A stretch of DNA of 64,000 nt from Saccharofermentans sp. (GCA_045648465.1 JAZROA010000010.1:7317-71316), one strand, 5' to 3'; positions 2,591 through 33,213 are shown, numbered from the stretch's first letter. Translations and numbers: made by a program. The notes: generated by a model from the sequence alone, not told the origin.

Positions 2591-2628
2591 AAAAGGCGTC
2601 CGGAATCAATTCATCCGGGCGCCTTTTA
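2591..2628. terminator. Bidirectional rho-independent terminator between convergent genes
   Basis: AAAAGGCGTCCGGA...TCCGGGCGCCTTTT, with an A-run on one side and a T-run on the other. Confidence 0.75.
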
Positions 2629-2638
2629 CATGATCTTA

Positions 2639-2968
2639 TTACTTTCTGATAAACTTTTTATCCGCTTCATATTCATCACTGACAAAGCGTTCAACAGTCA
2701 TGTGGAGATCGTATTTCTCTCGCAGTTCAGCAAGCTGCTTCATCATGGGAGATGCGTGATGCTCATCTATGGCTGCCTGATCAACCCATGAGTCGATCAG
2801 AAGCACCGTCTCCGGATCATCAAGAGGAACAAAATACTGATATCGAAGATTGCCTTTTTCACTGCGGATGGCATCAGCTATTCCGGATTGCTCCATCTCC
2901 TGCGCAAATGCTCTTGCGCTTCCATTCTGACCTTTGTAGTACAAATTTACAGTTATCATATTCCGCAC
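2639..2968 (-). CDS. Antibiotic-biosynthesis-monooxygenase (ABM, YgiN-like) domain protein
   Basis: At 109 aa the size fits. The pattern LRYQYFVPLDDPETVLLIDSWVDQAAIDEHHASPHM-like is typical of ABM ferredoxin-fold proteins. Confidence 0.6.
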   Translation of the reverse strand: MRNMITVNLYYKGQNGSARAFAQEMEQSGIADAIRSEKGNLRYQYFVPLDDPETVLLIDSWVDQAAIDEHHASPMMKQLAELREKYDLHMTVERFVSDEYEADKKFIRK

Positions 2969-3166
2969 CCTTATGTTCCAACATTATCATAATTAATAAT
3001 ATACACTTTATACCCCCCCTCTTTCTCGACCTATCTGATAGTATCGTCCTTTGACAGAAGGATCGTTTTTATATTATTAATTGATTTCATATGCAAACAC
3101 CCGTATTTGATCAATTAATTCTTATGTTTTCGATAAAGATTTTTCTATAACATCGATATTTCTACA

Positions 3167-3661
3167 TCACAGCTGAACAATAGTGAAAGACAGGAATGTC
3201 GGCGGATTACCAAGTTCTGATTTAATGCTGAACCCACATATCGGATTGTAACCCGTATATATATCGTGGATTTGCATTGTAATGTCTGTTTTATCTGATG
3301 AAGCGGCCGAGATTCTGTCTATGTGAAGATCCTGCATAGCTTCCGGAGCACCGTCAATTTCAAATGCTCGATCAGAACCAGCTACTATTCCAGCTAACAA
3401 CAATCTAGCAAGTTTTGACAGGTAGTTTTTATCAATAGAGGATAGTTTTGTACCTGCAAAGAAAATATCAACATTATCTTCATTGATTACAAAATCAACC
3501 TGTTCTGGTGTCGATTGATTTCTTACTACACGAAGAATAGGGAAATAAATATCGTTTATGCGTTCAACGTTCTCATTGGCCGCATAAAGCCGTCCTGTAT
3601 ACATCAGCTCAATTAACGCATACAGTTCGCTCCACTCGCCTCTGTTCCCGGTTAGTCGCAT
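3167..3661 (-). pseudogene. HpaII-family type II restriction endonuclease, N-terminal ~45% only
   Basis: The N-terminus NRGEWSELYALIELMYTGRLY and the segment GFSIKSELGNPPT match the R.HpaII family as I recall it (~350 aa). Here the ORF stops after 164 aa and is followed by AT-rich non-coding DNA. Confidence 0.55.
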
Positions 3662-3671
3662 AAACGCCTCC

Positions 3672-4298
3672 CTAGCCTAATACATCTTTAATCTGCTCCG
3701 CTATAGCTTGTATTACATTTACAGTTACACTGTTACCAAACTGCTTATATAAATGAGTATCAGATAATTCCAAAACATAGCTGTCAGGGAAGCCTTGAAG
3801 TCTTGCCCACTCCCTCGGAGTCATCTTTCTGATATCTTCATCATTGATCTTTCCTGAAATATGAGTCTCTGGAATTTTGCTGTGTTCACGATGATCAATG
3901 ATAAGATTTCTTTCTCTTCCCATTCCACCGCAAACAATAGTACCAGCAATACCGTCAAGATCCCTAATTTCGTATCCAAATCCGTTGCCCTTGGCTTCAT
4001 GTCTTGCCTTATGCTTTCTGAGCGTTTCTACATAAACGTCAGAAAGATAGTATCTGGCAGGAACAGGTGCAGCATCCATAATATCAATGATGCATTTCTG
4101 TTTCTTCTGAGCCTTAGGGAAAACAAACTCACCAACATTGAGATCATCCCTAAAAGCTACAATATAGATTCGTTCTCTGTTTTGCGGAACGCCATAATCT
4201 TTACTATTAAGAACCTTCCAAAAAACATGATAACCAATATCCTGGAAAGCTTTACGGATAACACGGAATGTATTGCCCTTAACAATTACAAAGAAAAT
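3672..4298 (-). pseudogene. DNA (cytosine-5)-methyltransferase, C-terminal half only (5'-truncated)
   Basis: The frame is open from 4298 with no start codon. It contains YGVPQNRERIYIVAF (motif VI), a target-recognition region, RKMTPREWARLQGFPD (motif IX) and YKQFGNSVTVNV (motif X). Motifs I-IV (FxGxG, PCQ, ENV) are absent. Confidence 0.8.
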
Positions 4299-4321
4299 TT
4301 ATATTTATTAACTTTTGAGTT

Positions 4322-5236
4322 TTATTGATATTTGATTCGTTTGGTAACAAAGGGGCTGAAATCTATCTTACTTCTCTTTTCTTTAAGTGTTGTTGAATCA
4401 ATATTCAGATCTATTCTCTGATTATTGTCGTTTCTTACTCTTAACCCCTGCTTACCCTTATATAAAGCAATTTGCAGAGTTTTGGCAGGTATTTCAAGAA
4501 TAATCAGTTCAGAGACAAACTGATTATTTAATACAATTGTCCAATCTACATCAACATAAGAAACGTTAGGATTTGCCCAATAATGTTCACTATTTCGTTG
4601 CCTTGAAGCATATGTCCAGTATTTCTTCAATATCACGCCATTCTCTTCAAGAAAAGCCTTAGCCTCACCTTTAGCTCTTATTTCAATTGATTCTTCATCA
4701 GAATTTTTAACCGTCGGTATGAGAGTCGTAACATTTTGCATATTATCAGAGAAAACTGTTACTCCAATCAACTCAAGAAGAAATAAGGCCTCTTCAAGAT
4801 ACTGGTTCAATGAAACCTTATTAAATTTGGATACCTTGGGCGGGTTTCCTTTTACTTTATTATCACAATCAAGAACATTATTCTCTTTTGCTTTTTCGAT
4901 CAATACATACTCAAGATAATCAATGTCAGACTTATTCAATCGATCATCTGAGGTAGTAAGTACTATTACTCTTTCCCACCAACTCTTGCCTACTCTATGT
5001 TGCTGAATTCTCCTCTGTAAATCTGATGCCTGACCCACATATACCATTGATTCAGAAATAAGAAGGTATACACCATATCTGTTACAAGCTTCTGTTTTGA
5101 AAAGATTATCAACAGAGTCTCTAGGTGCAGAATACAGTTCACCTGCATTCCAGCTTGTATCTTCCAAGCTCATTACACCATTAAGAGATCCATCTTCAAG
5201 AAGAAGGTTAATGGTTTTGGCTTTTATATTAGACAT
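4322..5236 (-). CDS. GIY-YIG nuclease family protein with C-terminal extension (DUF4357-like)
   Basis: Contains GVYLL...VYVGQASDLQRRIQQH...W (a GIY-YIG core). The 304 aa ORF ends 24 nt from the truncated methylase frame. Confidence 0.65.
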   Translation of the reverse strand: MSNIKAKTINLLLEDGSLNGVMSLEDTSWNAGELYSAPRDSVDNLFKTEACNRYGVYLLISESMVYVGQASDLQRRIQQHRVGKSWWERVIVLTTSDDRLNKSDIDYLEYVLIEKAKENNVLDCDNKVKGNPPKVSKFNKVSLNQYLEEALFLLELIGVTVFSDNMQNVTTLIPTVKNSDEESIEIRAKGEAKAFLEENGVILKKYWTYASRQRNSEHYWANPNVSYVDVDWTIVLNNQFVSELIILEIPAKTLQIALYKGKQGLRVRNDNNQRIDLNIDSTTLKEKRSKIDFSPFVTKRIKYQ

Positions 5237-5506
5237 ATTCAGGTGCTCCTATTCAAATATATAAAAAAATATTATATTTTGCATGGATCAATTACAAGAT
5301 CTTTAGTTATTTGTTTATACTTTCCTATCAATAAAATAATATTCTAGACCCAGCCATGATCTTCTTTACAAGAATGTACAAAAAAGAGTTGCGTTAATAA
5401 TTCTTCTATAATAGCCCCGTTCAACATAAAGTTCCGTTTGTAAAAGTAAATACAAAACAGCCCAACTGTCCATTTATCTTCATTATTCTCAATATATAAT
5501 AGGGCT

Positions 5507-5827
5507 ATGAGAAGCAATAGAACTAAGACAGATCGACTCAAACTGGTATGGGCAAAAACGAAAGGCGTGTGTGCCCACTGTGGCAATCCGTCTTCAGGGA
5601 GAGGCCGGACTATCGATCATTATGTGCCAAGATCTTATGATGGCGGATATGACATAAGAAATCTGATGCCCCTTTGCAGAAAGTGCAATGCAACTCGTGC
5701 CAATGAACCAATAGATCCATTTGAATTCTATAAGTACGCACCCGAGGAATATTTACTTCAATGCATTGAGTATGAGAACGAGCATAAAAGCAAACGCCGC
5801 AATTTCAATGGTGACGTATTCCTATGA
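5507..5827 (+). CDS. Small HNH endonuclease
   Basis: CAHCG...DHYVPRSYDGG...NLMPLCRKCN (a CxxC...H-N-H...CxxC zinc-finger HNH). Confidence 0.75.
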   Translation: MRSNRTKTDRLKLVWAKTKGVCAHCGNPSSGRGRTIDHYVPRSYDGGYDIRNLMPLCRKCNATRANEPIDPFEFYKYAPEEYLLQCIEYENEHKSKRRNFNGDVFL

Positions 5828-6697
5828 CTGAAACGCCTCTCCTATCCTCTCACATACAAACTCCATGGTATCAGCTGATGGCAGATGGTTTCCTGTTATC
5901 TTGATTAGCTCCGGCATGGTGGCAAATATCTCTTTTGCTCTTGGGAATACTCTGTTTGCCGGGAAGAATATATCGTCATCAGAAGCAAACAGGATTATTG
6001 GTGCAGTGAAGTTTTTGAGATCGTCTTTGCTGAACTCTCTGGGTGGCTTCATTTCCATTTTGTAAGAAGACATCATGAGCTTAAAGAATTCTTCCATCTG
6101 TTCATCGTCTTCAGTGGCCATGAGCTGCATTATCTTCTTAAATGATCTGTCTGACTGTACAAAATAGTATTTGAGCATCGGAAGCGCCATGCTTCTTAAG
6201 ATCGGCATCAGAGAGCCGTGAGCTATTCCTGAAGGAACTACCAGGGCAGCCTTTTCGATCCTTTGGGGTGCAACCTGTGCGAGCGATAAGAGCATCGCTG
6301 AACTGTAAGAAGATACGACAAACGGGATCTTATCTATTTTTAAGATATCCAGTATCTCTACCAGCCACCTGCCGTAATCGTCTTTGTTTGTATTAAGTGT
6401 TCTGTATGGTGCGCTCTTTCCGGGCATTCCGATGACATCAGGCGTTATCAGACAATGATCTCTTAGGAGCGGCAGAAACAATTTAAGATTTAGCGGTGTA
6501 ATCCCGTTGCCGCCGTGAACTGTAAAGATTGGTTTCTTAGTCTCATCGCCGGCAATGATGATGTGTGTCGTTCCATATGAAGTCTCTATATATTCTTCAC
6601 GATACTGGACATTCAAATCTTTCATTGCCCTGTCGTAAAAGCCGAGAATCTTATCCCTGCTTGACTGGTCTTTATAGACAAACTTGCCTCTGCTCAT
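5822..6697 (-). CDS. Alpha/beta hydrolase fold protein
   Basis: HGGNG oxyanion-type motif, a nucleophile-elbow region VVSSYSSAML, and a 291 aa length. Translationally coupled (4 nt overlap) to the upstream TetR gene. Confidence 0.6.
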   Translation of the reverse strand: MSRGKFVYKDQSSRDKILGFYDRAMKDLNVQYREEYIETSYGTTHIIIAGDETKKPIFTVHGGNGITPLNLKLFLPLLRDHCLITPDVIGMPGKSAPYRTLNTNKDDYGRWLVEILDILKIDKIPFVVSSYSSAMLLSLAQVAPQRIEKAALVVPSGIAHGSLMPILRSMALPMLKYYFVQSDRSFKKIMQLMATEDDEQMEEFFKLMMSSYKMEMKPPREFSKDDLKNFTAPIILFASDDDIFFPANRVFPRAKEIFATMPELIKITGNHLPSADTMEFVCERIGEAFQS

Positions 6698-7341
6698 AAG
6701 ATCTGTTGTACGAGCCCCTTCACCAGTAATCTTGTGCTCTTTGTTATGGTCTTGTCGCCGATGACATTCCCGTACATGCCTCCGAACAGGATCATGGTAA
6801 ATGCTCCGCGCATTTCTTCAACGGACAAGCCTTTCTTTTCGATCAGTGATTCTATTATTCCGTTATCTCTTTTCTGTTCTCTGTGTTCTTTAAGTACATC
6901 TTCCGGAAGTTTATCCAGTATCAGAGCCATGCTCTGAGGCTCCAGTAAAACCCTGAGACAGGAATTTTGTGTGATCTCTATCGCACCCATTATCACGTCA
7001 GTGACTTCGTCTACGTATCCCGACAGATCAGTTTTGTTTGTTTTCTTGCTGCCGATGATGTTCTCCATTCCCTGAGTAATATGCGCATTTACCTGCTCAT
7101 GAAGATCCTGCGCACATTCAAATAAGAGCATCTCCTTGGATGGGTAAAAAAGATAAAAGGTTCCCTTTGGGATCCCTGCTCTCCGGACCAGTTCATCCAC
7201 AGTCGTCTTCCTGACGCCCTTCTCACGGATAAGCTCATCGGCACCGTTCTTTAATCTTCTGACTATTTCAAACCGTTCTTCTTCCGAGTATATCTTAGGC
7301 ATGTCTTTCCTCTTTTTGACCGTTTTCGTATTTTTGGTCAT
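6694..7341 (-). CDS. TetR/AcrR family transcriptional regulator
   Basis: N-terminal HTH GVRKTTVDELVRRAGIPKGTFYLFYPSKEML. Confidence 0.8.
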   Translation of the reverse strand: MTKNTKTVKKRKDMPKIYSEEERFEIVRRLKNGADELIREKGVRKTTVDELVRRAGIPKGTFYLFYPSKEMLLFECAQDLHEQVNAHITQGMENIIGSKKTNKTDLSGYVDEVTDVIMGAIEITQNSCLRVLLEPQSMALILDKLPEDVLKEHREQKRDNGIIESLIEKKGLSVEEMRGAFTMILFGGMYGNVIGDKTITKSTRLLVKGLVQQIL

Positions 7342-7475
7342 TATAAAATTGAGGAGATATTCTTGTCAATCTGAGGTTCTTGACAAAAAGGCCGGCTGGG
7401 TGCAAAATGAAACCGATTTCATTTAGTGAAACTCGTTTCATTTTCGAATCACCTGACAGAGGAGGCGGGAAACAC

Positions 7476-8150
7476 ATGCCCAAAGTTACTCAGGAATACT
7501 TTGATAAAAAGAAAGAAATGATAGTAGAGGCAGCTTATCAGGTCTGTCTGAAAAAGCCTGTGGAGATGGTGACGATATCTGATGTCATTGCAGAGACGGG
7601 AATGTCCATGGGAGCTATATACCGCTATTACGACGGACTCGATGAGATCCTGGCGGACATGCTTAAAAAGCTCAGACAAGAATATGACTACTACGACCGT
7701 ATTGAAGAACTATCCAATGAGAAGGATCTGACTTTCGAAGAGATCACATACCGGGTATGTGACATCGTTGGCGAAGTAATGGAAAAACACCTGATGGATA
7801 TTCAGAAGATCAACTTTGATTTCGCTTCTCTTGCAGTGAACAGCCCCGAGAGGATGACAAAGATCATGGAAGGCGCTGCAGGGCAAGGCATCACTGAGAA
7901 AATAGGTATTTATATCTTCCCCAAAATGGTGGAAGCTGCCATGAAACAGGGATACAAAATGAACGGCACGCCTGAAGAGATAGGTGTTTTCATCTCTGCG
8001 GCATTTTCGGGCATTGAGAGGCTTTGCATACTGCAGGCTAATTACGGGTCCGACAGCTATGGAGCAAAGATTGAACCCAAAGTCCTATTCAGAACTCTTG
8101 CCAGATCGGTCATTTTATTATTCGGAGGAAAAATCGATGAGAAAAAATAA
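7476..8150 (+). CDS. TetR/AcrR family transcriptional regulator
   Basis: GGAGG RBS before the ATG at 7476. HTH VEMVTISDVIAETGMSMGAIYRYYDGLDEIL. The longer track ORF starting at 7380 has no RBS. Confidence 0.8.
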   Translation: MPKVTQEYFDKKKEMIVEAAYQVCLKKPVEMVTISDVIAETGMSMGAIYRYYDGLDEILADMLKKLRQEYDYYDRIEELSNEKDLTFEEITYRVCDIVGEVMEKHLMDIQKINFDFASLAVNSPERMTKIMEGAAGQGITEKIGIYIFPKMVEAAMKQGYKMNGTPEEIGVFISAAFSGIERLCILQANYGSDSYGAKIEPKVLFRTLARSVILLFGGKIDEKK

Positions 8151-9276
8151 GATCAATAAGCCCATGCCAACCGGCGAATATGCCGTGGGCACTTTTTCTT
8201 ATACGGTATATAACGACCGCGAAGAGAAAATGTATAACGCCATTGGAAGTAAGAGATCCATACCTGTAAAAGTTTACTATCCTGCTGCAAAGGAGTTTGT
8301 CGAAGGGCTTCCCAAGGCGCGTTACATGAGCAAGGCGACCGTCGATGCCATCAGAAAGAACTTTTATGTTCCGATTAACTACGAGAAGGTGGAAAGTGAC
8401 GGAACAAACCGTTCTGAATGCTATGAGAATGCCCCCTTTATTGAGGGTGAACGTTTTCCCCTTATCCTGTTCAATTACGGTTACAGCTCGTTTTTGGAAG
8501 CTAATACATATCTTTTGATCGAGCTTGCTTCCCACGGCTACGTTGTCGCATCCGTGGGTCATCCTTATGAAGGAATGGTAACCACGCTCGATGACGGAAC
8601 AGTATATAAACAGGCAAAGGGGCTCTCATCAAAAGTGTATTCGCCGTTTATCCCTGCCACTATTGCGCTGTTGAGATTTCAGAAAGCCAAAGGAACAAAC
8701 GAGGAACTGTGGGCAAGGCTTGATGCGATCCAAAAGAAGTACAACAGATTCTTAATCGAGAGACTTACGGAATGGAAACTGGATACGAAAGCAGCGTTAA
8801 GGGTTCTCAAAGATAAATATTCCGGCATGATCGACTTCGCCAACGGGATCGGCGTTACAGGACATTCCTTTGGAGGGGCGACAGCCTATGCCCTTTGCGA
8901 AGACGAACCGGAGACTTTTACCTGCGGGATAAATATAGATGGCGCTCTCTTCGGAAACCACGATGGCAAGGTGATAACGACGCCATTTCTTCAGATGAAC
9001 TGCGAAGCGAATAAAACAGCTGTTACGGTTGCATTTGTTAAGAACAGGAACGTTGCATACCATGCCGTATTACGTGACATGCAACATCTGGGGTTCTCGG
9101 ATCTGAAGCATGTCATCCCGCTTAAATCACAGATGGGAAAGCTGGATCCCGATACTGCCCATAAAACGGTGTGCGGAATTCACCTGGAGTTCTTTGATAC
9201 TTATCTGAAGAAGGCTAAAGGCAAACCGGTTTTCGAGAACAGCGATGCAGTTACATTTACGGAATATGAACCGTGA
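8137..9276 (+). CDS. Alpha/beta hydrolase (PAF-acetylhydrolase / dienelactone-hydrolase-like)
   Basis: GGAGG RBS before the ATG at 8137, which overlaps the TetR stop. Nucleophile elbow GVTGHSFGGATA. Confidence 0.65.
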   Translation: MRKNKINKPMPTGEYAVGTFSYTVYNDREEKMYNAIGSKRSIPVKVYYPAAKEFVEGLPKARYMSKATVDAIRKNFYVPINYEKVESDGTNRSECYENAPFIEGERFPLILFNYGYSSFLEANTYLLIELASHGYVVASVGHPYEGMVTTLDDGTVYKQAKGLSSKVYSPFIPATIALLRFQKAKGTNEELWARLDAIQKKYNRFLIERLTEWKLDTKAALRVLKDKYSGMIDFANGIGVTGHSFGGATAYALCEDEPETFTCGINIDGALFGNHDGKVITTPFLQMNCEANKTAVTVAFVKNRNVAYHAVLRDMQHLGFSDLKHVIPLKSQMGKLDPDTAHKTVCGIHLEFFDTYLKKAKGKPVFENSDAVTFTEYEP

Positions 9277-24361: not shown

Positions 24362-24470
24362 AATCACAGTAAAAGTCACAGTACACTATGACGGCTACTG
24401 TGATTTTTTCGAGCCTTTATACAAAATCACACTAATAGTCACAGTGCACTATGACAGTTACTGTGATTTT
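24362..24470 (+). repeat. Two tandem ~48 nt word-hairpin units (61 nt period)
   Basis: AATCACAGTAAAAGTCACAGTACACTATGACGGCTACTGTGATTTTTT and AATCACACTAATAGTCACAGTGCACTATGACAGTTACTGTGATTTTT. Confidence 0.85.
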
Positions 24471-24623: not shown

Positions 24624-25601
24624 TTACAAAAGCCTTCCACTTTTATGGGTCGGATCAAGGATGGCCTTTGTTCTAAGCGGATTAATAGGGTGACTTGCGG
24701 TCAGGTTAGTAACGAATCTTGCGAATTTCTCGATGAAATTCTTGTCCTTGTTTACATATGACATATAGTTGTCGACATTAACGTACTTATAGACATGTCT
24801 TCCTGCAGAGAGGAACATCATTGTCTCAGCACCACACTTATTGTCTGTAAGAACCTGTGCAACGCGGTCACAAGAGTATTCTCTTGCACGCTGCAGGAGA
24901 GGTCCCATAAATTTTTGGCCGAAAATGGGGATTATGTTTGCAAGATTTGCGAAGAAATTATAGTGGAGTTTAGTGTGCTTATAATACAGATGACCGAACT
25001 CATGTCCCATTATGAAGCTAATCGTATCAAGATCTTTGTGCTCCAGATACAGCAGTTCGATTATTTCTGCGTTCAAATGCACATAGTCTTTGCCGGGAAC
25101 CCAGGATGCATATGCATTGATAGTGCCGTTCATCTGTTCAACATAAACTTCAGGTTCCTTCTTGAAGCCGAGAAGCTTTGAGAACTCTTTGACTTTCGCG
25201 TAGATCTCAGGGAAATTCTCTTCGGAAACCCTGATGCCGTAAGCCATGTTGCTTGCGTATCCCTTGTAGTATTCAATGAGGCTCAGGATGATGAGATAGC
25301 AGACGAAACCGATTGCACCGATCGAAGCAAATACTGCTATGAAACCAATAAGGAATGCTGAGAATTCAGGACTTGTTTCCGTAATCTCCGCATTCTCGAG
25401 ACCTTCCTTGATCAGATCAACGATTCCGTATTCGCCGAATAAAACGATACCTGCGATACATAAGAAAACCGGTCCGATAATTGAATTGATCACAAAGAGC
25501 GGTAACTCTGCCTTGTGGCGGCGGTTTCTTATTTCTTTTTGTACCGACTCAGGTGTTCTGACTGTCTGTTCACTCATAACTTGTTCCTCCAATTTTGACA
25601 C
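24624..25601 (-). CDS. M48-family (HtpX/Ste24-like) membrane zinc metallopeptidase
   Basis: Two to three TM helices, then HEFGHLYYKH (HExxH) and a downstream acidic ligand region. Confidence 0.8.
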   Translation of the reverse strand: MSKLEEQVMSEQTVRTPESVQKEIRNRRHKAELPLFVINSIIGPVFLCIAGIVLFGEYGIVDLIKEGLENAEITETSPEFSAFLIGFIAVFASIGAIGFVCYLIILSLIEYYKGYASNMAYGIRVSEENFPEIYAKVKEFSKLLGFKKEPEVYVEQMNGTINAYASWVPGKDYVHLNAEIIELLYLEHKDLDTISFIMGHEFGHLYYKHTKLHYNFFANLANIIPIFGQKFMGPLLQRAREYSCDRVAQVLTDNKCGAETMMFLSAGRHVYKYVNVDNYMSYVNKDKNFIEKFARFVTNLTASHPINPLRTKAILDPTHKSGRLL

Positions 25602-25622
25602 AATGTTTTGTTGAATGAGGCT

Positions 25623-25687
25623 AGGTTATCATCGCGAAAGACGTTTTGCGGATTTTGTGGTGAATTGACAGTGTAGCGTGGTGAAAT
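25623..25687 (-). promoter_or_regulatory. Candidate LytTR box plus -10 for the M48 peptidase gene
   Basis: Minus-strand read: ATTTCACCAC-N11-AATTCACCAC-N28-TAACCT. Confidence 0.65.
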
Positions 25688-25742
25688 GAATGATATCAGT
25701 TTGTTTGGCTGGCATGACGGGATTAGGGGGAGCAGAAGCATC

Positions 25743-25825
25743 TGCTATAATATCCCCGTTCAATTCATAGTTAACGGAGTTTTTTATACATGATTAAAGT
25801 TTTAATGGTATGTCACGGCAGTATT
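25743..25825 (+). repeat. Direct repeat A: copy of the LMW-PTP promoter plus first 12 codons (orphan stub MIKVLMVCHGSIN*)
   Basis: Differs from 32072-32152 at four sites (three substitutions and a 2 nt T-run indel). Includes TATAAT, the RBS and the ATG at 25790. Confidence 0.9.
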
Positions 25826-25979
25826 AATTGAGCCTGAGAGACAAGACTGCAAGCCCTTATTTTCACGCGTTTTGAGGGGATTAAGGTTCATAACTGTACC
25901 TTATTTGTACCTTTGAAATTTTCAAAAAATGTGTTGACCACACATATAAGTTTCTACTATGCCAATCCCGATACGATAA

Positions 25980-26012
25980 ATACCGCAAGATATGGATCCT
26001 GCGGTATTTTTT
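25980..26012. terminator. Hairpin plus T-run, probable terminator downstream of the arsR-permease-thioredoxin-like operon (also works on the plus strand)
   Basis: TACCGCA-N12-TGCGGTA, flanked by an A-rich tract (AAA) upstream and TTTTTT downstream. Confidence 0.5.
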
Positions 26013-26128
26013 ATTTTATAAACAGAACATTAGATAGTTGTTCGTATCGATGGTCATCGGGCACTAAAACCAAGTATCAACTAACGAGCTTGGTATATTA
26101 AATTGATTTTCTCTTCAAGTAGTATATT

Positions 26129-26359
26129 TCAAAGCAATAGTTTTTCGATTTCTTTTGCATTGAGTACCCGGCCTGATGATACGATCTTATCGTCGATCAT
26201 CAGTGCGGGCATGCTCATTATTCCGTAATTCATTATCTTCTCCAGATCTGTAATATACTCAATGTCTGCCGATAAATTATTATTTGCGACTACTTCTTTT
26301 ACCTCCTTGAGAAGTGTCTCGCAGCTTCTGCAGCCTCCTCCTAATACTTTAATGTTCAT
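26129..26359 (-). CDS. Thioredoxin-fold redox-active disulfide protein 2 family
   Basis: 76 aa with MNIKVLGGGCRSCE (a CxxC right after the GGG). Confidence 0.75.
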   Translation of the reverse strand: MNIKVLGGGCRSCETLLKEVKEVVANNNLSADIEYITDLEKIMNYGIMSMPALMIDDKIVSSGRVLNAKEIEKLLL

Positions 26360-26373
26360 AATTAATTCCTCCT

Positions 26374-27369
26374 TCAGATCAGTATTGTTTGTAATATGTT
26401 AAAACCATATCCGACGATTATTATTCCTATCGTGCATATGGCTATAAACACCGTTAAGAGTTTTGGCTTAACCGCCTTTTTCAGCATTATCAGAGACGGA
26501 AGGCTCAACGTAGTAACTGCCATCATGAAGCTCAGGATCGTTCCGAGGAGCGCCCCTTTTGACAGGAGTGCTTCAGCTACCGGTATAGTACTGAATATAT
26601 CCGCATACATCGGGATGCCGATCATTGTCGCGAGTATCACACCAAAAGGATTATTAGTGCCAAGCACGGTTTCTACCCAGCTCTCAGGGATCCAGTTATG
26701 AATAATGGCTCCAATAGCTACTCCCGCGATGATATACAAGAAAACCTTCTTGAGTGTTTCTTTTACCTGATCTTTCGAGAAGATAAGCCTTTCTTTTACT
26801 GTGAGTTTTCTGTTCTCGATATCGATCCGCTTTGCTTTACGTATAAACTCAGCCACTTGATCTTCCATGTGAAGTTTCTCGATCAACGTTCCGCCTGTAA
26901 CTGCAATTACCAGACCAAGCAGAACATAAAGCACTGCGATCTTCCATCCGAATATACTCAGCAGAAGCACAAGACTTGCCAAATCGACCATAGGTGATGA
27001 GATAAGAAAGGAGAATGTTACGCCCAGAGGAAGTCCTGCGCTGGTAAATCCCATAAACAGAGGGATCGAAGAACACGAGCAGAAAGGAGTGACTGTTCCA
27101 AGGAGAGCGCCGATGATATTTGCTCCTATGCCATGAAATCTTCCCAATATCTTACGGCTTCTTTCCGGGGGGAAGAAGCTTTGTATATATGAGATCGTGA
27201 AGATCAATATGCACAGAAGTAAAATGATCTTGACCGTATCGTAAATAAAGAAATGGATGCTGGCTCCGATCTTTGTGCCGGTATTTAATCCTAAAGATAC
27301 TAAAGTAAAACCTATGAGGTCACTCAGCCACCTCATCCCGAATATCTGTTCCTGTATAAAATCCCACAT
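26374..27369 (-). CDS. Permease of the ArsP/DUF318 family (putative organoarsenical/metalloid efflux)
   Basis: About 8-9 TM helices and the conserved TPFCSCSSIP motif. Sits between an ArsR gene and the thioredoxin-like gene. Confidence 0.65.
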   Translation of the reverse strand: MWDFIQEQIFGMRWLSDLIGFTLVSLGLNTGTKIGASIHFFIYDTVKIILLLCILIFTISYIQSFFPPERSRKILGRFHGIGANIIGALLGTVTPFCSCSSIPLFMGFTSAGLPLGVTFSFLISSPMVDLASLVLLLSIFGWKIAVLYVLLGLVIAVTGGTLIEKLHMEDQVAEFIRKAKRIDIENRKLTVKERLIFSKDQVKETLKKVFLYIIAGVAIGAIIHNWIPESWVETVLGTNNPFGVILATMIGIPMYADIFSTIPVAEALLSKGALLGTILSFMMAVTTLSLPSLIMLKKAVKPKLLTVFIAICTIGIIIVGYGFNILQTILI

Positions 27370-27453
27370 GTTATCTCCTCACTTCGACACATCTACATTT
27401 ATCGAACTATTGCTGTTTTTATAAGGCAATCCGAGAGATTGCCTTAAGTTCAG

Positions 27454-27759
27454 TTATTTGCAGCAGTTTTTCTTATTGCCTTTACAATCGCATTTCATGT
27501 ATCCCGAAAGCATTTTCATAAAGCTGTCAATTCCATCAGGTGATACGGAATAGAACATCCATTTACCATCCTTGCGACCGTTAACCAGGTTACTGTCACA
27601 GAGTAATCTCATATGATGAGACAGAGTTGACTGTGAGATATTAAGTTCTTCACCAAGGACACAAGCACACTTCTCTCCATTTTGAAGCGAGAGCATGATC
27701 TTAAGTCTGTTCTCATCAGCTAACGCTTTTATCTTACGTGCATCATCTCGCTGTGCCAT
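27454..27759 (-). CDS. ArsR/SmtB family metalloregulator
   Basis: EKCACVLGEEL (CxC metal site), LSHHMRLL recognition helix, and a Cys-rich tail KCDCKGNKKNCC. Start chosen at the ATG at 27759. Confidence 0.8.
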   Translation of the reverse strand: MAQRDDARKIKALADENRLKIMLSLQNGEKCACVLGEELNISQSTLSHHMRLLCDSNLVNGRKDGKWMFYSVSPDGIDSFMKMLSGYMKCDCKGNKKNCCK

Positions 27760-27816
27760 ATCGATTACCACCATATGAGTCTGGGATGATAATAACACTC
27801 ATTTCGATATTTGTAA

Positions 27817-28167
27817 ATGTGTGAAACCGTTAGAGAGCGCAAAATCGCATGTGCTTGGTCCATAATATTCCTGAAAATCGGCACTAAGGACGCTGACTAT
27901 GAACACCTCTATGAAAACATAGTTGCCATAGAACTGCTAAGACGCGGATACGAAGTATATGTTGGAAAATTATATGAGAAAGAGATAGATTATGTTGCAA
28001 AAAAAGAAGGCGTCAAGACTTACATTCAGGTCTCGGACAATATAACCCGCGATGAAACATTTAAACGGGAGGTATCTCCGCTCAAACCTTGCACGATGTT
28101 TTCGATAGTGCTTTTGTATATCCTGATATCTTTAATTGGATGCAAAGATCCTTCCCCTTCTATTTAA
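27817..28167 (+). pseudogene. C-terminal fragment of an AAA/DUF4143 ATPase gene
   Basis: [43 protein letters not shown] parallels the C-terminus of the intact paralog at 30391-31611. The N-terminal ~300 aa are missing. Confidence 0.6.
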
Positions 28168-29872
28168 CAGCGTTGAAAGTTTCCGGTGTTACGGTAAAAC
28201 TGTGATCATATACCGTATCCGTGCATATCGTAACTTTGAAATCATCAAGATCATAAACGCATGACCACTCAGTCTGCATACGTCCGGAATCGTCACTTCT
28301 TAATGCGGCATTTGAAAGAAATATCATTGCCGTTGCCGCATCTGCCGTTCCGCCGCATGCTGAGAGGTTATCTGTCAGGATCTTATATCTGTTCATTGAG
28401 TCTGTATCCGGTTCATCTTCCGTGTAATCACTGCAGACAATATGGTTAGTAACTTTACAGTCTTCCGTAACAACCATTTCATTATCTATCCACTCTACTA
28501 TTACGGATCTTCCTGATCTGTCGGTGATAAAAAGATGAAAACTCCTGTCTATCATTGAATGCATATCATAAGAATCAAGAAGTGTCAGGGCTTCGTCAGT
28601 GCTGCCGCACGTATCAAGAATTGCTCTGATGGCGACATTCATAAGAATATCCGGTTTACCTGTATCCTGGTGCATTTCCTCATTCTCCAGCTGCAGGATG
28701 GATATACCGACACCTGCTTCATTGATTCCGTCAACTGTCAGATAAGGGAACGCTACAGACATAAATCTTGAGCCTGCTGACAGAGGATCGGTCTCACCCG
28801 CATCTGTTCCAAGACCCATCAGACCGATATCAGCCATACCGATCGAAGCATAACCGTCTGCAGGATCAGAATATATCATGAGCAGATCCGTCTCAGGATA
28901 ATCATAATTTCTTCCCATCAGGTGATGTCCGTCAGGAGCCGTGACAGCAAAGGAACTGCATCCGAAAGACATACCACTTATGTTTACCGGCATTCCCCAG
29001 AACATTTCATCAGAAATAAACGAGTACAACTCTCCTTCACTCGATATGCCCGCATCGAGCATAACCTGAAGTTTATAATCTTCCTTGCAGTTCATGGCGT
29101 AGACACCCGGCTCAAGTTCCTTAAGGGATGCAAAAGTGCTTATTCGATTTCTGTATACGACAGCCAGAGTTATAACTCCTGCAAACACGAGGACAAGTGT
29201 TCCAAGGATAATTGCCTTGGGAGAGAGCTTTATGAGAAGTAGTGAGACCAGGGCTATGACACTTCCTGCAATAGCCATAACTTCACCGATGATCTTAAAC
29301 TTTGCGTTACCGGTGTTCTCCACTCTGCACTGATAACGGGACACACTTTCATCGACCAGTGCCTGACCCTCATCAGAGCACATAAACTCATAGTATTCCA
29401 GAGCCGCAGCATCTGCATTTCCTTCCTCTTTTATAAACTCATATACACGGAGATTTTGTTCATTAAGGTATTGGACTACCTTCTGACGCTTATCTTCGGG
29501 ACATTCTTCCACGGATACAGTCAGCGCTACATTACCGTTCTCATCAGGAGTGAGAAGAAATCTTGAGATGTTGTAGTAGTCGAAGTTCATGTTCTCGAGG
29601 ATTACAACAGCAGAGTCGTCTTCGCCACGGTAAACGCTCCCGATACTGATCTCATCATCCAATTTCGCTAACCCGGCATAATTAACAAGGATAGTGCCGT
29701 GCGCTCCGGGCTTAAAACTGTCCTGTTCGAAAACATCCAGTACAACATTGCTGCCCGGTGCGTTTTTGCCGTCATTACCGAATATGAAGCACATGGCAAA
29801 ACCACCGGCCGCTATAACAGCTCCTATGACAGCGGCGATTATCTTCGCCTTCGTTCTGTTCTTCTTTCCCAT
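28160..29872 (-). CDS. Membrane-anchored protein with a C-terminal choloylglycine-hydrolase-family (Ntn, linear amide C-N hydrolase) domain
   Basis: N-terminal TM helix, a mid-protein TM pair, then GCSSFAV (a putative Ntn Cys nucleophile) and NYDYP. Confidence 0.6.
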
Positions 29873-30090
29873 CTTAAGCCCCCTGTCAAATAATTACTTC
29901 AGGTCATCCGCACCGAAGGTGAAGGTCTTCGTATAATCGCCATCAAGGCAGATATGTAAAGTGTTCTTTTAAGAGCGTTTTTGTCTTGTAATTCATTATA
30001 TAGTTCAAAGGCAGCAGATGATGATGAATAAAGTGTGCTGTGTTATGATTCTTCCGAATAACACACAAATAACGAGGGAATTGAATACGT

Positions 30091-30127
30091 ATGCTAAAAG
30101 TACTATTCGTATGTCACGGCAGTATTA
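30091..30127 (+). repeat. Repeat B: third, diverged copy of the LMW-PTP gene start (stub MLKVLFVCHGSISSEK*)
   Basis: The 19 nt GTATGTCACGGCAGTATTA is identical to 25808-25826. The upstream 18 nt are diverged but still encode a homologous N-terminus. Confidence 0.8.
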
Positions 30128-30390
30128 GCTCGGAAAAATAAAGCCCCTAATTTTAGGGCTCTTGAGGGTATTTTTCTTGATATTTTGACCCTCGTTTGAC
30201 CCCCAAGAAACCAAGGTCCAGTGTGGTTATTTTTTAACAATTGTTCCTGCGCTCGTTGAGCACAGTTTATCTGAATCTCTAAGCAACTCAATAATGACCT
30301 TGCAAAAAAATGCAGTTTTTATATTTTTTTGCACGCTAACTTGCAAATATTTACTTCGGGTGATAATATCGGCAATATGAGGTACTACAT

Positions 30391-31611
30391 ATGCGATTAA
30401 CCAGAGAAAACTATCTTCAAGCAATAAGACCGTATTATGAAGCCGATCTGATCAAGGTGATCACCGGTGTGCGACGTGCCGGGAAATCGGTTATATTGGA
30501 AAGCATACGTGACGAGCTCTCCGCATCAGGTATTGGTGCGGATCATATTGTATATGTTAACTTGGAAGACCTTGATTATGAAGGCATTACTACAGCTTCC
30601 GATCTCAACAAAGAGATAAAGTCTCATATAACTGATAATGGAAGATATTATCTTTTTATAGATGAAATACAGCATGTTGAAGAGTTTGAGAAAGCTCTGG
30701 CATCTTTCAGAGCTACACTGAACGCATCTATATTTGTAACCGGTAGCAATTCTCATCTTCTTTCAGGTGAATTAGCAACATTACTCACCGGAAGGACTGT
30801 CGAATTTGAAATATTACCTTTCTCCTTCAGCGAAATGAAAGAATATTTTGAACTTAACGGGAAGCCGTTCGATGATGAATTGATATATGATTACCTGAAA
30901 TGGGGAGGTTTTCCACTCAGGTTCGATTTTAGTGAAGAATCTGATATCGGCAGATATCTGTCCAATCTCTACACCGGTCTTTTGAACAGGGATATCCTGA
31001 CCAAGAAAAGCAGAGTGGATCGCAAGATCTTCATGGATGTTGCGATGTACGTTCTCTCAAATGCAGGAAAGGAATTTTCTGCCGAAAACATAATGAATTA
31101 CTATGAAAGCAAAAACCACAGAAGTGTTGGTCAGAGAACAGTCTACAATTACATAGAAAAGATGCAAAAAGCATTCCTTGTCCATCCCGTTCAGAAGTAC
31201 GATATCATCGGAAAAACCGCTCTTCAATCGAAACAAAAATACTATGCCGTTGATACAGGATTCAGAACCATACATACCAATACTATCAACTTTGAAGATA
31301 CCTTCTTTCTGGAAAACCTTGTATATAATGAATTGCTCTTTCAGGGATTTACTGTGTTCACCGGAAAAACTCATAAAGGAGAAGTGGATTTTGTAGCCAT
31401 TCGCAACGGAAAAAAGTGCTTTATTCAGGTTTCCTACCTCATGACCTCCCAAAGCACTATAGAACGCGAATTCGGTGCATTTTCCTCGATAACTGATGCA
31501 TCTCCGAAATATGTGCTTTCACTGGACAAAATAGATTTGAGCCAAAACGGCATTGCGCATATGAATATTGTCGACTTTCTGCTTCACAGGCAATCACTTG
31601 CACTGACATAA
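30391..31611 (+). CDS. AAA-family ATPase with DUF4143 C-terminal domain
   Basis: Walker A GVRRAGKS, Walker B LFIDEIQ, and a C-terminal restriction-endonuclease-like region. Confidence 0.75.
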   Translation: MRLTRENYLQAIRPYYEADLIKVITGVRRAGKSVILESIRDELSASGIGADHIVYVNLEDLDYEGITTASDLNKEIKSHITDNGRYYLFIDEIQHVEEFEKALASFRATLNASIFVTGSNSHLLSGELATLLTGRTVEFEILPFSFSEMKEYFELNGKPFDDELIYDYLKWGGFPLRFDFSEESDIGRYLSNLYTGLLNRDILTKKSRVDRKIFMDVAMYVLSNAGKEFSAENIMNYYESKNHRSVGQRTVYNYIEKMQKAFLVHPVQKYDIIGKTALQSKQKYYAVDTGFRTIHTNTINFEDTFFLENLVYNELLFQGFTVFTGKTHKGEVDFVAIRNGKKCFIQVSYLMTSQSTIEREFGAFSSITDASPKYVLSLDKIDLSQNGIAHMNIVDFLLHRQSLALT

Positions 31612-32071
31612 ATTTCGTTGCCCACGCAAAGTGATTATGCATACATCACACATTGAGCAGGAAGAATCTCAATGAAGGTAAAACTATCTGACATTATCGG
31701 AGCGATTGAGATGACAGATCAGGATTGCCTTCCTTCTTACCGCAGATTCCGACCTTCCAAAGTTTTCACATTGAGTATAGTAGCCATGTTTTCCTGTCTT
31801 GGTATTAGGCTTCAAAACCAAATAGAATCAACTTTTTCCTTATAATTGGAGAAAATTTGCTATAAATGTGTTTTTTCTCCAAATAATTGTCGCTTTACGA
31901 ATTTGCCTAAACACAAGATAAACGAACGCGTAAAAGTCCGGTTAACGTTACCGTTTTCGCAAAAATCTTAATAATGTATACGTTAGCATTGCTTCTTTTA
32001 TCATTTTTACTATCTTTTATCATTCTTTATCATTCGTCTTGCCACACCAATCTGTAGCGCAATGGCATATT

Positions 32072-32152
32072 TGCTATAATATCCCCGTTTAATTCATAGT
32101 TAACGGAGTTTTATACATGATTAAAGTTTTAATGGTCTGTCACGGCAATATT
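32072..32152 (+). repeat. Direct repeat C (promoter and 5' end of the intact LMW-PTP gene)
   Basis: Matches 25743-25825. Confidence 0.9.
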
Positions 32153-32578
32153 TGTAGATCGACAATGGGTCAGTTTATGTTCCAGGATATGGTCAATAAG
32201 AGAGGGCTTGCTGACAGGTTTTATATTGACTCTGCTGCAACAAGCACGGAAGAGATCGGCAATGGTCCGCACTATGGTACCGTAAGCAAGCTTCGTGAGG
32301 TTGGGATACCGGTTCTGCCACACCGTGCACGCCAGATGACACGTGCTGACTATCAGAACTTCGATTACCTGATCGGCATGGATTCATATAACATCAGGAA
32401 CATGACCAGGATCGCAGGCGGGGACCCTGACGGAAAGATATATCAGATGCTCTCTTTTGCGGGAAGCAACAGGAGCATAGCAGATCCGTGGTACACGGGT
32501 AATTTCGACGAGACATATGACGATCTGTGTGAGGGACTTGAGGCATTCATGAAGTACCTGGAAGCTGAGGTGTTATAA
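32117..32578 (+). CDS. Low-molecular-weight protein-tyrosine phosphatase
   Basis: P-loop VCHGNICRS (CX5R-S) near the N-terminus and the DP loop IADPWY. Confidence 0.9.
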   Translation: MIKVLMVCHGNICRSTMGQFMFQDMVNKRGLADRFYIDSAATSTEEIGNGPHYGTVSKLREVGIPVLPHRARQMTRADYQNFDYLIGMDSYNIRNMTRIAGGDPDGKIYQMLSFAGSNRSIADPWYTGNFDETYDDLCEGLEAFMKYLEAEVL

Positions 32579-32607
32579 TTCAGGTACATTCATCTTAGGG
32601 GGATAGT

Positions 32608-33213
32608 ATGAATACTTTTAAGAAGATCGCATGTTCGTTTATGGCAGTTGCCGTGGTAATCGGATGTACTGCCTGTGCTTCCAAGACTTTCGACCATAAG
32701 AAAGCCGTCAAATTCTGTGAAGATGAAGGCTATGAGCTCTACGATGACGTGGATGATTATGCCGGGGATTTCGAGAAGTTCATATCGGGCGAATGGCCGG
32801 GCGAAGGCGCCTATATCCACGCAGTTAAAGACGTTGCACAGGATGTCTACGATAATGTCTTTAACCGTTTCGGAGCTTATCCGGAATGCGACGTTAATGA
32901 AGCGACGTCATTTGTATTCTTTGATCAGGGCGTTTTCGTTCAGGGTTACGTTCTGACTTTCGATGAAGTTAAAGATGCCGAGAAAACATTTAAGGACTAT
33001 GCCAGAAGATTTAAAGAAGACGGTGAAGACGGAGAAGAAAAAGGCTATACGTATTTCATCATGGAGAAAAGATACAGCGAGAACATGAAAATGTATTGCG
33101 GCATCTATCAGAAAAACAATTCGGTATTATTCATACAATGCAATTACAAAAAGCCATCCATGGTTGATGAGATCTGTGAGAACTTCGGCGTAATATCACC
33201 TTCAGAAGCTTAA
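32608..33213 (+). CDS. Lipoprotein, paralog 1 (hypothetical)
   Basis: Signal peptide plus lipobox IGCTAC. Colinear with the next gene from end to end. Confidence 0.65.
   Translation: MNTFKKIACSFMAVAVVIGCTACASKTFDHKKAVKFCEDEGYELYDDVDDYAGDFEKFISGEWPGEGAYIHAVKDVAQDVYDNVFNRFGAYPECDVNEATSFVFFDQGVFVQGYVLTFDEVKDAEKTFKDYARRFKEDGEDGEEKGYTYFIMEKRYSENMKMYCGIYQKNNSVLFIQCNYKKPSMVDEICENFGVISPSEA

Follow-up and report, generated by a model that had tools for sequence, protein, structure and literature searches.

Repeated starts of a low-molecular-weight phosphatase gene in a Saccharofermentans genome as probable attachment-site scars of an element family in Clostridia

In Streptococcus thermophilus, ICESt1 and ICESt3 integrate at the end of a gene and decay by losing integration and transfer genes, with attL and attR retained (Pavlovic 2004, Bellanger 2011, in PMC5704250). 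An element without integration genes that has both attL and attR is termed a cis-mobilisable element (CIME), and the next element can integrate into an att site, giving tandem arrays that are mobilisable in cis or in trans (PMC5704250). The composites of integrative mobilisable elements and CIMEs at the tRNA-Lys gene of Streptococcus agalactiae similarly line up related and decayed elements in tandem at a single att site, and have complex excision patterns (PMC5704250). Here we describe a stretch of 64,000 nucleotides from Saccharofermentans sp. (GCA_045648465.1 JAZROA010000010.1:7317-71316; hereafter the window), in which the start of a low-molecular-weight (LMW) phosphotyrosine phosphatase gene occurs three times, as two stubs (A and B) and as the start of the intact gene (C). 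The three starts are very probably attachment-site scars of integrase-driven elements, which in numerous gut and rumen Clostridia insert side by side into the first codons of the phosphatase gene, and the window holds a decayed, integrase-less stack of them. With equally high confidence, we regard codons 7–11 of the LMW phosphatase gene (TGY CAY GGC A, in the catalytic Cys-X5-Arg loop) as the attachment site of a large element family of Clostridia; these elements are small and integrative, and probably mobilisable.

The likeness to the CIMEs of ICESt1 and ICESt3 lies in the scheme of accretion and decay. There the target is a 3' end, whereas here it is the 5' end of the phosphatase gene, in the codons of the catalytic loop, so the elements must carry a promoter and a start codon; in addition, the arrays described here comprise up to several very small units (0.9–1.8 kb), and mobilisation is putative. 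The S. agalactiae tRNA-Lys islands resemble this locus in that related and decayed elements stand in tandem at a single att site, but differ in target gene, host clade and cargo, which here includes a defence-candidate ATPase and a redox/efflux module. The accretion and decay type of system is already known; a literature search found no description of an LMW phosphatase gene as an integration target.

Direct observation covers the repeats, a conserved switch point with its signature, integrase genes adjacent to the same gene start, matching arm repeats, and polymorphism at the stubs. The 10-mer TGTCACGGCA is common to stub A, stub B and C (Table 1), and as a core direct repeat it marks the ends of the units in the window. 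A longer 19-mer, GTATGTCACGGCAGTATTA, occurs without mismatch at 25808 and 30109, and with three mismatches at 32135; three matches of this type were observed against 0.01 expected from shuffled sequence. Copy A (25743-25825) differs from copy C (32072-32152) by three substitutions and a 2-nt indel, the two having 83 bp in common, promoter included. The stubs translate to MIKVLMVCHGSIN and MLKVLFVCHGSISSEK, ending in stop codons after 13 and 16 codons, respectively. A preliminary description of this DNA had reported the three copies, the four differences between A and C, the 19-mer shared by A and B that departs from the intact gene at three positions, and both stub peptides; all were reproduced by recount and translation. 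Its list of the cargo between the repeats agrees with the Pfam annotation, and, as it had noted, there is no recombinase among the Pfam-annotated genes there.

Related loci are designated L plus a number; some of them were found as contigs that encode close homologues of the window phosphatase. A Tn916/Tn1549-type integrase (Int) and an excisionase (Xis) abut the same gene start in L003, L061, L123, L124, and L111. In L003, a Tn916-type Xis (PF09035) and the integrase (PF02920 and PF00589) end 185 bp before the phosphatase ATG; this Int matches the structures of Tn1549 Int (6EMY, E 6e-79) and of the arm-binding N-terminal domain of Tn916 Int (1B69/1BB8, E ~1e-8), and the integrases of L003, L123, and L124 have 73–77% mutual identity. 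The long contigs L111 (496 kb) and L112 (252 kb) have two complete tandem elements of 9.4 and 6.8 kb, each ending in Xis and Int, followed by the phosphatase gene and housekeeping genes. In L117, where Xis and Int likewise abut the phosphatase start, the order is Int, right arm, intact phosphatase gene; in L115, which also has Int and Xis, an L117-type integrase is followed by a stub and a left arm. Among 85 scorable loci, at least 12 have an integrase open reading frame whose end lies no more than 700 bp upstream of the stub, which corresponds to the right arm–core–left arm order of tandem elements. The related elements carry Rep (DnaD/DnaB_2), Rep_trans or NikA-like genes. In the window, the arm repeats of both left arms, P'(A) and P'(B), match those of cognate integrase-bearing elements (Table 1).

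Tn916 and Tn1549 insert at many AT-rich sites, with variable coupling sequences. The elements related to those of the window share with the Tn916/Tn1549 module an Int with an arm-binding N-terminal domain and a tyrosine recombinase core (6EMY, 1B69), a Tn916-type Xis directly upstream of it, and phased arm-type repeats in both element arms; unlike Tn916 and Tn1549, they are specific for one conserved coding sequence, and they are small elements with Rep, NikA-like or Rep_trans genes and no full conjugation module. Because int and xis are absent from the window, the island there is not itself a member of the integrase-bearing class.

The switch point is conserved across the family: stubs read TGYCAYGGCA followed by G, whereas intact genes have GGCA followed by A (the Asn of the CX5R loop). 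The stub pattern ATGNTNAARGTNNTNNTNGTNTGYCAYGGNAG matched 105 stretches in a collection of species-representative genomes, with an estimate of fewer than one chance match (~43 bits against 1.2e12 positions). The hosts belong to Lachnospiraceae, Ruminococcaceae, and Oscillospiraceae, and include Blautia, Dorea, Roseburia, Butyrivibrio, and Ruminococcus flavefaciens. The preliminary description had likened the three starts to attL, an internal junction and attR, and this is supported by the Int and Xis at the same gene start in relatives and by the GGCA-to-G stubs in the 105 stretches. That the gene start was simply duplicated locally, with no mobile element involved, would accommodate the 83 bp common to A and C; this is scarcely credible and was rejected, because what follows stubs A and B is found again behind phosphatase stubs of other genomes, next to integrase genes, and because of the signature in the 105 stretches.

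The left arms that follow the stubs fall into at least 57 families with a common layout, namely an A-rich segment spanning about +17 to +32, and a repeat motif mainly at about +60 and about +70, one helical turn apart. The loci were read in 8-kb blocks, which seldom show whole elements. A scan of IMG/VR with the stub pattern gave four matches in 2.9 million contigs; given so few matches, together with the Rep, Rep_trans or NikA-like genes, the elements look like integrative mobilisable elements and not like phages. The sole intact-gene variant among the 105 stretches is L007, in which an intact LMW phosphatase gene (212-667) has the P-loop CHGSICRS, with Ser for the usual Asn, so that its gene start fits the stub pattern. 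At another kind of locus (L115 5802-6474; also L116, L052, L074, L065, and L103), an integrase-bearing element ends in right arm, core and left arm, and an intact phosphatase gene lies ~130 bp further on; its P-loop is CWGNICRS, with TGG for CAC in the core. This may be a unit reduced to a minimal remnant, or the host may carry an allele whose match to the attachment core has been lost.

The proposed mechanism runs as follows. An element would encode a Tn916/Tn1549-type tyrosine integrase with an arm-binding N-terminal domain, and a Tn916-type Xis; Int, acting on arm and core sites, would exchange strands within TGYCAYGGCA. The integrase-proximal arm would bring a promoter or ribosome-binding site (RBS), the ATG and the first ten phosphatase codons, and this right arm would take over the role of the gene's promoter and first codons. 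Because the arm carries the gene start, integration would leave a dead stub at the left (attL) and a working gene rebuilt at the right (attR); as the rebuilt start is a target again, elements would accumulate in tandem. Newcomers may use the attL or attR of residents, so that arrays grow, and deletions, many of them at microhomologies (L077, L104, L127), would strip away int, xis and arms. Applied to the window, stub A would join the chromosome, via the core, to the left arm of a first element, E1, which would have kept both arms and lost Int and Xis, with a thioredoxin–permease–ArsR module, an ATPase fragment and an Ntn hydrolase as its cargo. Stub B would join the right arm of E1, via the core, to the left arm of a second element, E2; E2 would have become fused at 31726 to remnants of a UPF0158 element and an AEP-TOTE element, and the right arm of the last remnant would now drive the intact phosphatase gene. 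We infer in this way that an integrase made the junctions of the window, as well as the order of events and any present-day mobility. The preliminary description had left a choice between a decayed island, an element mobilised in trans and a cassette-like accretion site; a mixture of these fits best, in which a decayed accretion island has kept arms that could serve in trans.

Table 1. Features of the phosphatase-start array in the window, with arm repeats of a related locus for comparison (positions counted from the first letter of the window).
Feature	Position	Strand	Evidence or remarks
M48 peptidase gene	24624-25601	-	Pfam PF01435; conserved chromosomal left flank of the array
Bacterial-side left arm of stub A	25731-25789	+	Short phosphatase promoter (TATAAT 25747) and RBS
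Stub A	25790-25820	+	Phosphatase codons 1-10 and first base of codon 11; TGTCACGGCA at 25811-25820
E1 left arm P'(A)	25821-26104	+	Two phased TGTACC repeats, 25895 and 25906, 11 bp apart; matches L124 integrase-proximal arm, TTTGTACC twice (TTGTACC type)
Thioredoxin_3 (E1 cargo)	26129-26359	-	Pfam
ArsP_1-type permease (E1 cargo)	26374-27369	-	Pfam; NCBIfam SaoE/SO_0444-like efflux
ArsR regulator (E1 cargo)	27454-27798	-	Pfam
DUF4143 ATPase C-terminal fragment (pseudogene)	27868-28095	+	Weak Pfam DUF4143 match; tblastn
Membrane-anchored Ntn (C45/AAT, CBAH) hydrolase (E1 cargo)	28160-29872	-	Pfam PF03417 and PF02275; NCBIfam C45_proenzyme
E1 right arm P(B)	29952-30090	+	Gives RBS and start to stub B
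Stub B	30091-30121	+	Hybrid junction, E1 right arm–core–E2 left arm; 10-mer at 30112-30121
E2 left arm P'(B)	30122-30364	+	Phased TTGACCC repeats, 30185 and 30196; matches L123 integrase-proximal arm, TTTGAACC twice (TTTGAMCC type)
AAA_14 and DUF4143 ATPase (E2 cargo)	30391-31611	+	Pfam; PADLOC PDC-S01 phage-defence candidate
Remnant common to L123: UPF0158 gene start (ATG 31672, 18 codons, to 31725), then deletion junction	31638-31726	+	L123 homology to 31726; tblastn to UPF0158 proteins of L004 and L005
AEP-TOTE primase-helicase fragment, 88 bp	31725-31812	-	98.9% identity to L001 6629-6717, within gene 4024-6966
Right arm giving the intact gene its promoter and RBS	31930-32116	+	Three TTATCATT repeats (31998, 32017, 32027)
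Intact gene start C	32117-32147	+	10-mer at 32138-32147, within the CX5R P-loop codons
Intact LMW phosphotyrosine phosphatase gene (attR side)	32117-32578	+	Pfam PF01451, E 1e-31, full length
L115, both arms			TTGCACC-type repeats, within the same element

At the left end of the array, the M48 flank is conserved: its identity to L104 is 95.5% as far as 25725, and to L127 98% as far as 25713, beyond which each genome differs. The short arm before stub A is homologous to the region upstream of C, and also to L001, L104, L058, and L004. P'(A) recurs with 97% identity in L101 and 90% in L042, with other cargo behind the arm in each. At the other end of E1, the 170 bp from P(B) through stub B (29952-30121) have 97.6% identity to L001 3697-3863 and to L009, and L101 has P(B), core and P'(A) in succession, which is the attP-type junction expected of E1. 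E1 (25821-30090) has stubs A and B at its ends and no recombinase; with both att sites retained, it is an arm-bounded, integrase-less, CIME-like element. Within E1, the DUF4143 fragment is 37% identical (tblastn) to residues 291-368 of the intact copy and 57% to the copies in L009 and L058. In a metagenome contig (run X2), 26101 is joined to 27867, so that P'(A) meets the DUF4143 fragment; because exactly 26102-27866 is missing there, the thioredoxin–permease–ArsR module is a separate insertion or deletion inside E1. P'(A) also includes, at 25934-26015, a promoter-like TTGACC-N17-TACTAT followed ~25 nt on by a GC-rich hairpin and a T-run; this segment, kept in L101 and L042, may specify a very short transcript. 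Downstream of the M48 peptidase gene, at 24362-24470, there are two tandem 52-nt units, each internally palindromic; units of this type also occur in L001-L003, near an Rrf2 gene.

The P'(B) arm of E2 is also found in L058, L009, and L123-L132. Positions 30091-31726 of the window are 99% identical to the left end of the intact integrase-bearing element of L123, which continues past the shared part with nSTAND3, a PemK toxin, Xis, Int, the right arm and the next stub. Judged from this homology, E2 corresponds to the leftmost 1.6 kb of an L123-like element and breaks off at 31726, within the UPF0158 gene start; with its own right arm replaced, it fits the CIME definition partly, and the same holds for the remnants behind it, whereas E1 fits it. 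The E2 ATPase is a predicted phage-defence candidate, matching PADLOC PDC-S01 (PDLC04787) at full length (E 5.8e-135, residues 3-400 on model positions 11-409 of 412), and the index of the assembly collection lists the identical protein in 101 blocks. This protein combines an AAA+ domain with a nuclease-like domain. It was considered whether the ATPase itself moves the units: in 7 of 72 scorable loci, the first gene after the stub is a DUF4143 gene, and such a gene is the only one in the units of L001 and L125. This is very improbable and was rejected, as most stubs have no DUF4143 gene behind them and integrase-bearing elements account for the junctions; moreover, E1-type arms occur with unrelated cargo, and the protein matches a defence-candidate family.

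The UPF0158 start and the AEP-TOTE fragment between the ATPase gene and C had been missed in the preliminary description, which counted two insertions; on account of them, the array holds the remains of more than two elements, and at least three or four can be recognised. The arm upstream of the intact gene (31930-32116) is homologous to L001 8116-8269, downstream of an AEP-TOTE element, and is also present in L004 and L005, behind a UPF0158 cassette that itself opens with a stub (L004). What had been taken for the promoter of the true gene start is an element-type right arm common to the L001 and L004 units, and its homologies assign it to the last (AEP-TOTE) remnant and not to E2. The region upstream of C was also considered as a native promoter, with the UPF0158–phosphatase arrangement of L004 and L005 as an empty site; this was rejected because L004 has a stub upstream of UPF0158 and because the same region stands behind the AEP-TOTE element of L001. 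Just upstream of the phosphatase promoter are the three TTATCATT direct repeats (31998-32035), of which L001 has more (8080-8170); they may represent arm-type sites for an integrase since lost, or else iterons belonging to the AEP-TOTE element. In L001, the AEP-TOTE primase-helicase gene (with PADLOC PrimPol/PbeA-like matches) and an ATPase_2 gene form an integrase-less unit between two stubs (4024-8056), of which only the 88-bp piece is left in the window. Homologues 93% identical to the window phosphatase occur in rumen metagenomes; an exact look-up of the window phosphatase and M48 proteins found neither on record. An Rfam scan of 25000-33000 gave one chance-level match and nothing more.

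Variation at the locus was read from assembler contigs of public gut and rumen metagenomes (12 runs), in which as many as 79% of the words making up this stretch were present. Loss of E2 was seen as a joint from 30111 to 32138 (10 shared nt, with sides of up to 160 nt) in runs X4, X7, and X12, from three studies, and loss of E1 as a joint from 25813 to 30115 in X3; in X1, the left side of C was joined to the right side of B. The M48 flank with stub A was joined to at least four other left arms, including a gatagatg type (X4 and X8), an AEP-TOTE type (X12), and another (X9), and several metagenome contigs diverge from the window at 29954. Among the relatives, L126, recovered from a different sample, matches the window in overall arrangement (95.7% over 12 kb); L127, which its flank places in the same species, carries other units behind that flank. 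These variants are strain polymorphism at the stubs in mixed communities, not excision within one cell. The presence and absence of units might instead stem from RecA-dependent or slipped recombination between short direct repeats, the stubs being passive scars. The joints do lie within 10–13 nt of shared sequence, and microhomology deletions are found elsewhere in the arms, in L077 (between two CCGCAAG), L104 (ATTA), and L127 (which lacks 25714-26010); however, repeats of 10–44 nt are poor substrates for homologous recombination, and the same 10-nt interval is the switch from gene start to left arm in every element of the family; we consider this explanation rather unlikely.

A different question is whether integrase-less units are working cassettes, excised and re-inserted by an integrase encoded elsewhere, in the same genome or on an incoming element, with the phosphatase start as an integron-like platform. 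The best hint that integrase-less units may still be moving is the putative ATPase unit: the module of stub, P'(B) and ATPase (30091-31637, 1.55 kb) is 98.6–99.2% identical behind at least six different left contexts or arms. In L125 and L127-L132, it ends in a short right arm (gcaaatcgtaactATG...) followed by the next stub, so that in L125 a 1637-bp integrase-less unit is bounded by stubs on both sides (2601 to 4238). Other short integrase-less units lie between stubs in L001 (1.76 kb) and L004 (0.94 kb); the L001 unit contains the DUF4143 ATPase gene alone, preceded by a stub with an A-like upstream region and followed by an intact phosphatase gene behind a different upstream sequence. The conservation of left arms across genomes with different cargo (L101 against the window), and the differences in cassette content between strains exactly at stubs, also speak for working cassettes. 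On the other side, no circle junction can be assigned to a single strain, P(B) has no arm-type repeats and E2 no right arm of its own, the 64-kb window has no integrase, and vertical inheritance with deletions and homologous recombination within arrays could yield the same mosaics. On balance, we consider cassette exchange by an integrase elsewhere possible but doubtful, and hold equally tentatively the wider proposition that the phosphatase start in gut and rumen Clostridia is an integron-like gene-capture platform at which Tn916-type integrases shuffle units in trans. If true, the site would hold hypervariable arrays of defence-candidate and stress genes, such as the 1.6-kb PDC-S01 ATPase unit, with dozens of arm families, each unit with a spare gene start and many without an integrase. 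The likeness to integron arrays is that one site gathers short, mostly promoter-poor units of one to a few genes between recombination sites, with strain-variable content. Unlike in integrons, the sites are of attP/attB type with long arms and arm-type repeats, without IntI or attC hairpins, a copy of the start of the host gene is part of every unit, and the integrase travels on some units. The window itself has no tyrosine recombinase, and its junctions are gene-start stubs with long arms in place of attI and attC; the island is not an integron.

Several observations weigh against attributing the three starts to integrase-driven insertion. The profile of the cognate integrase family gave no match in the whole 64-kb window at E<=10, and tblastn found there neither an integrase open reading frame (PF02920 and PF00589) nor a match to the L003 Xis. 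Arm-type repeats were looked for in P(B) and none were found, so E1 is probably a poor excision substrate; with P(B) repeat-less and the right arm of E2 lost, efficient integrase-mediated excision of either element is doubtful. The metagenomic variants are short contigs from mixed communities, and other strains, or homologous recombination between the 19–44-nt repeats, may account for them in place of integrase action. The preliminary description had looked to alternative states of the site, and these were largely found, as variants without E1 or E2 cut exactly at the stubs; however, a fully empty site (A joined to C) occurred in none of the 12 metagenome runs. In L104 (2116-2135), the M48 flank is joined straight to ATTAATTGAGCCTG, the first 14 nt of P'(A), and stub A is missing; this joint is tentatively explained at best, as a microhomology deletion scar between two ATTA, and the sequence further downstream also differs.

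Read as attachment-site scars, the three gene starts become intelligible as what a widespread family of elements with one defined target leaves behind. Its attachment site falls within the best-conserved codons of a housekeeping phosphatase, which probably accounts for the broad host range of the family across Lachnospiraceae, Ruminococcaceae, and Oscillospiraceae. The site is a hot spot of strain-variable cargo, with the PDC-S01 candidate and restriction-modification, toxin-antitoxin, efflux, and redox genes, and for this reason could be used as a marker locus when typing strains of gut and rumen Clostridia or searching them for new defence genes. The integrases, with a site defined by 10 bp, could serve as site-specific tools for anaerobes that are hard to engineer.

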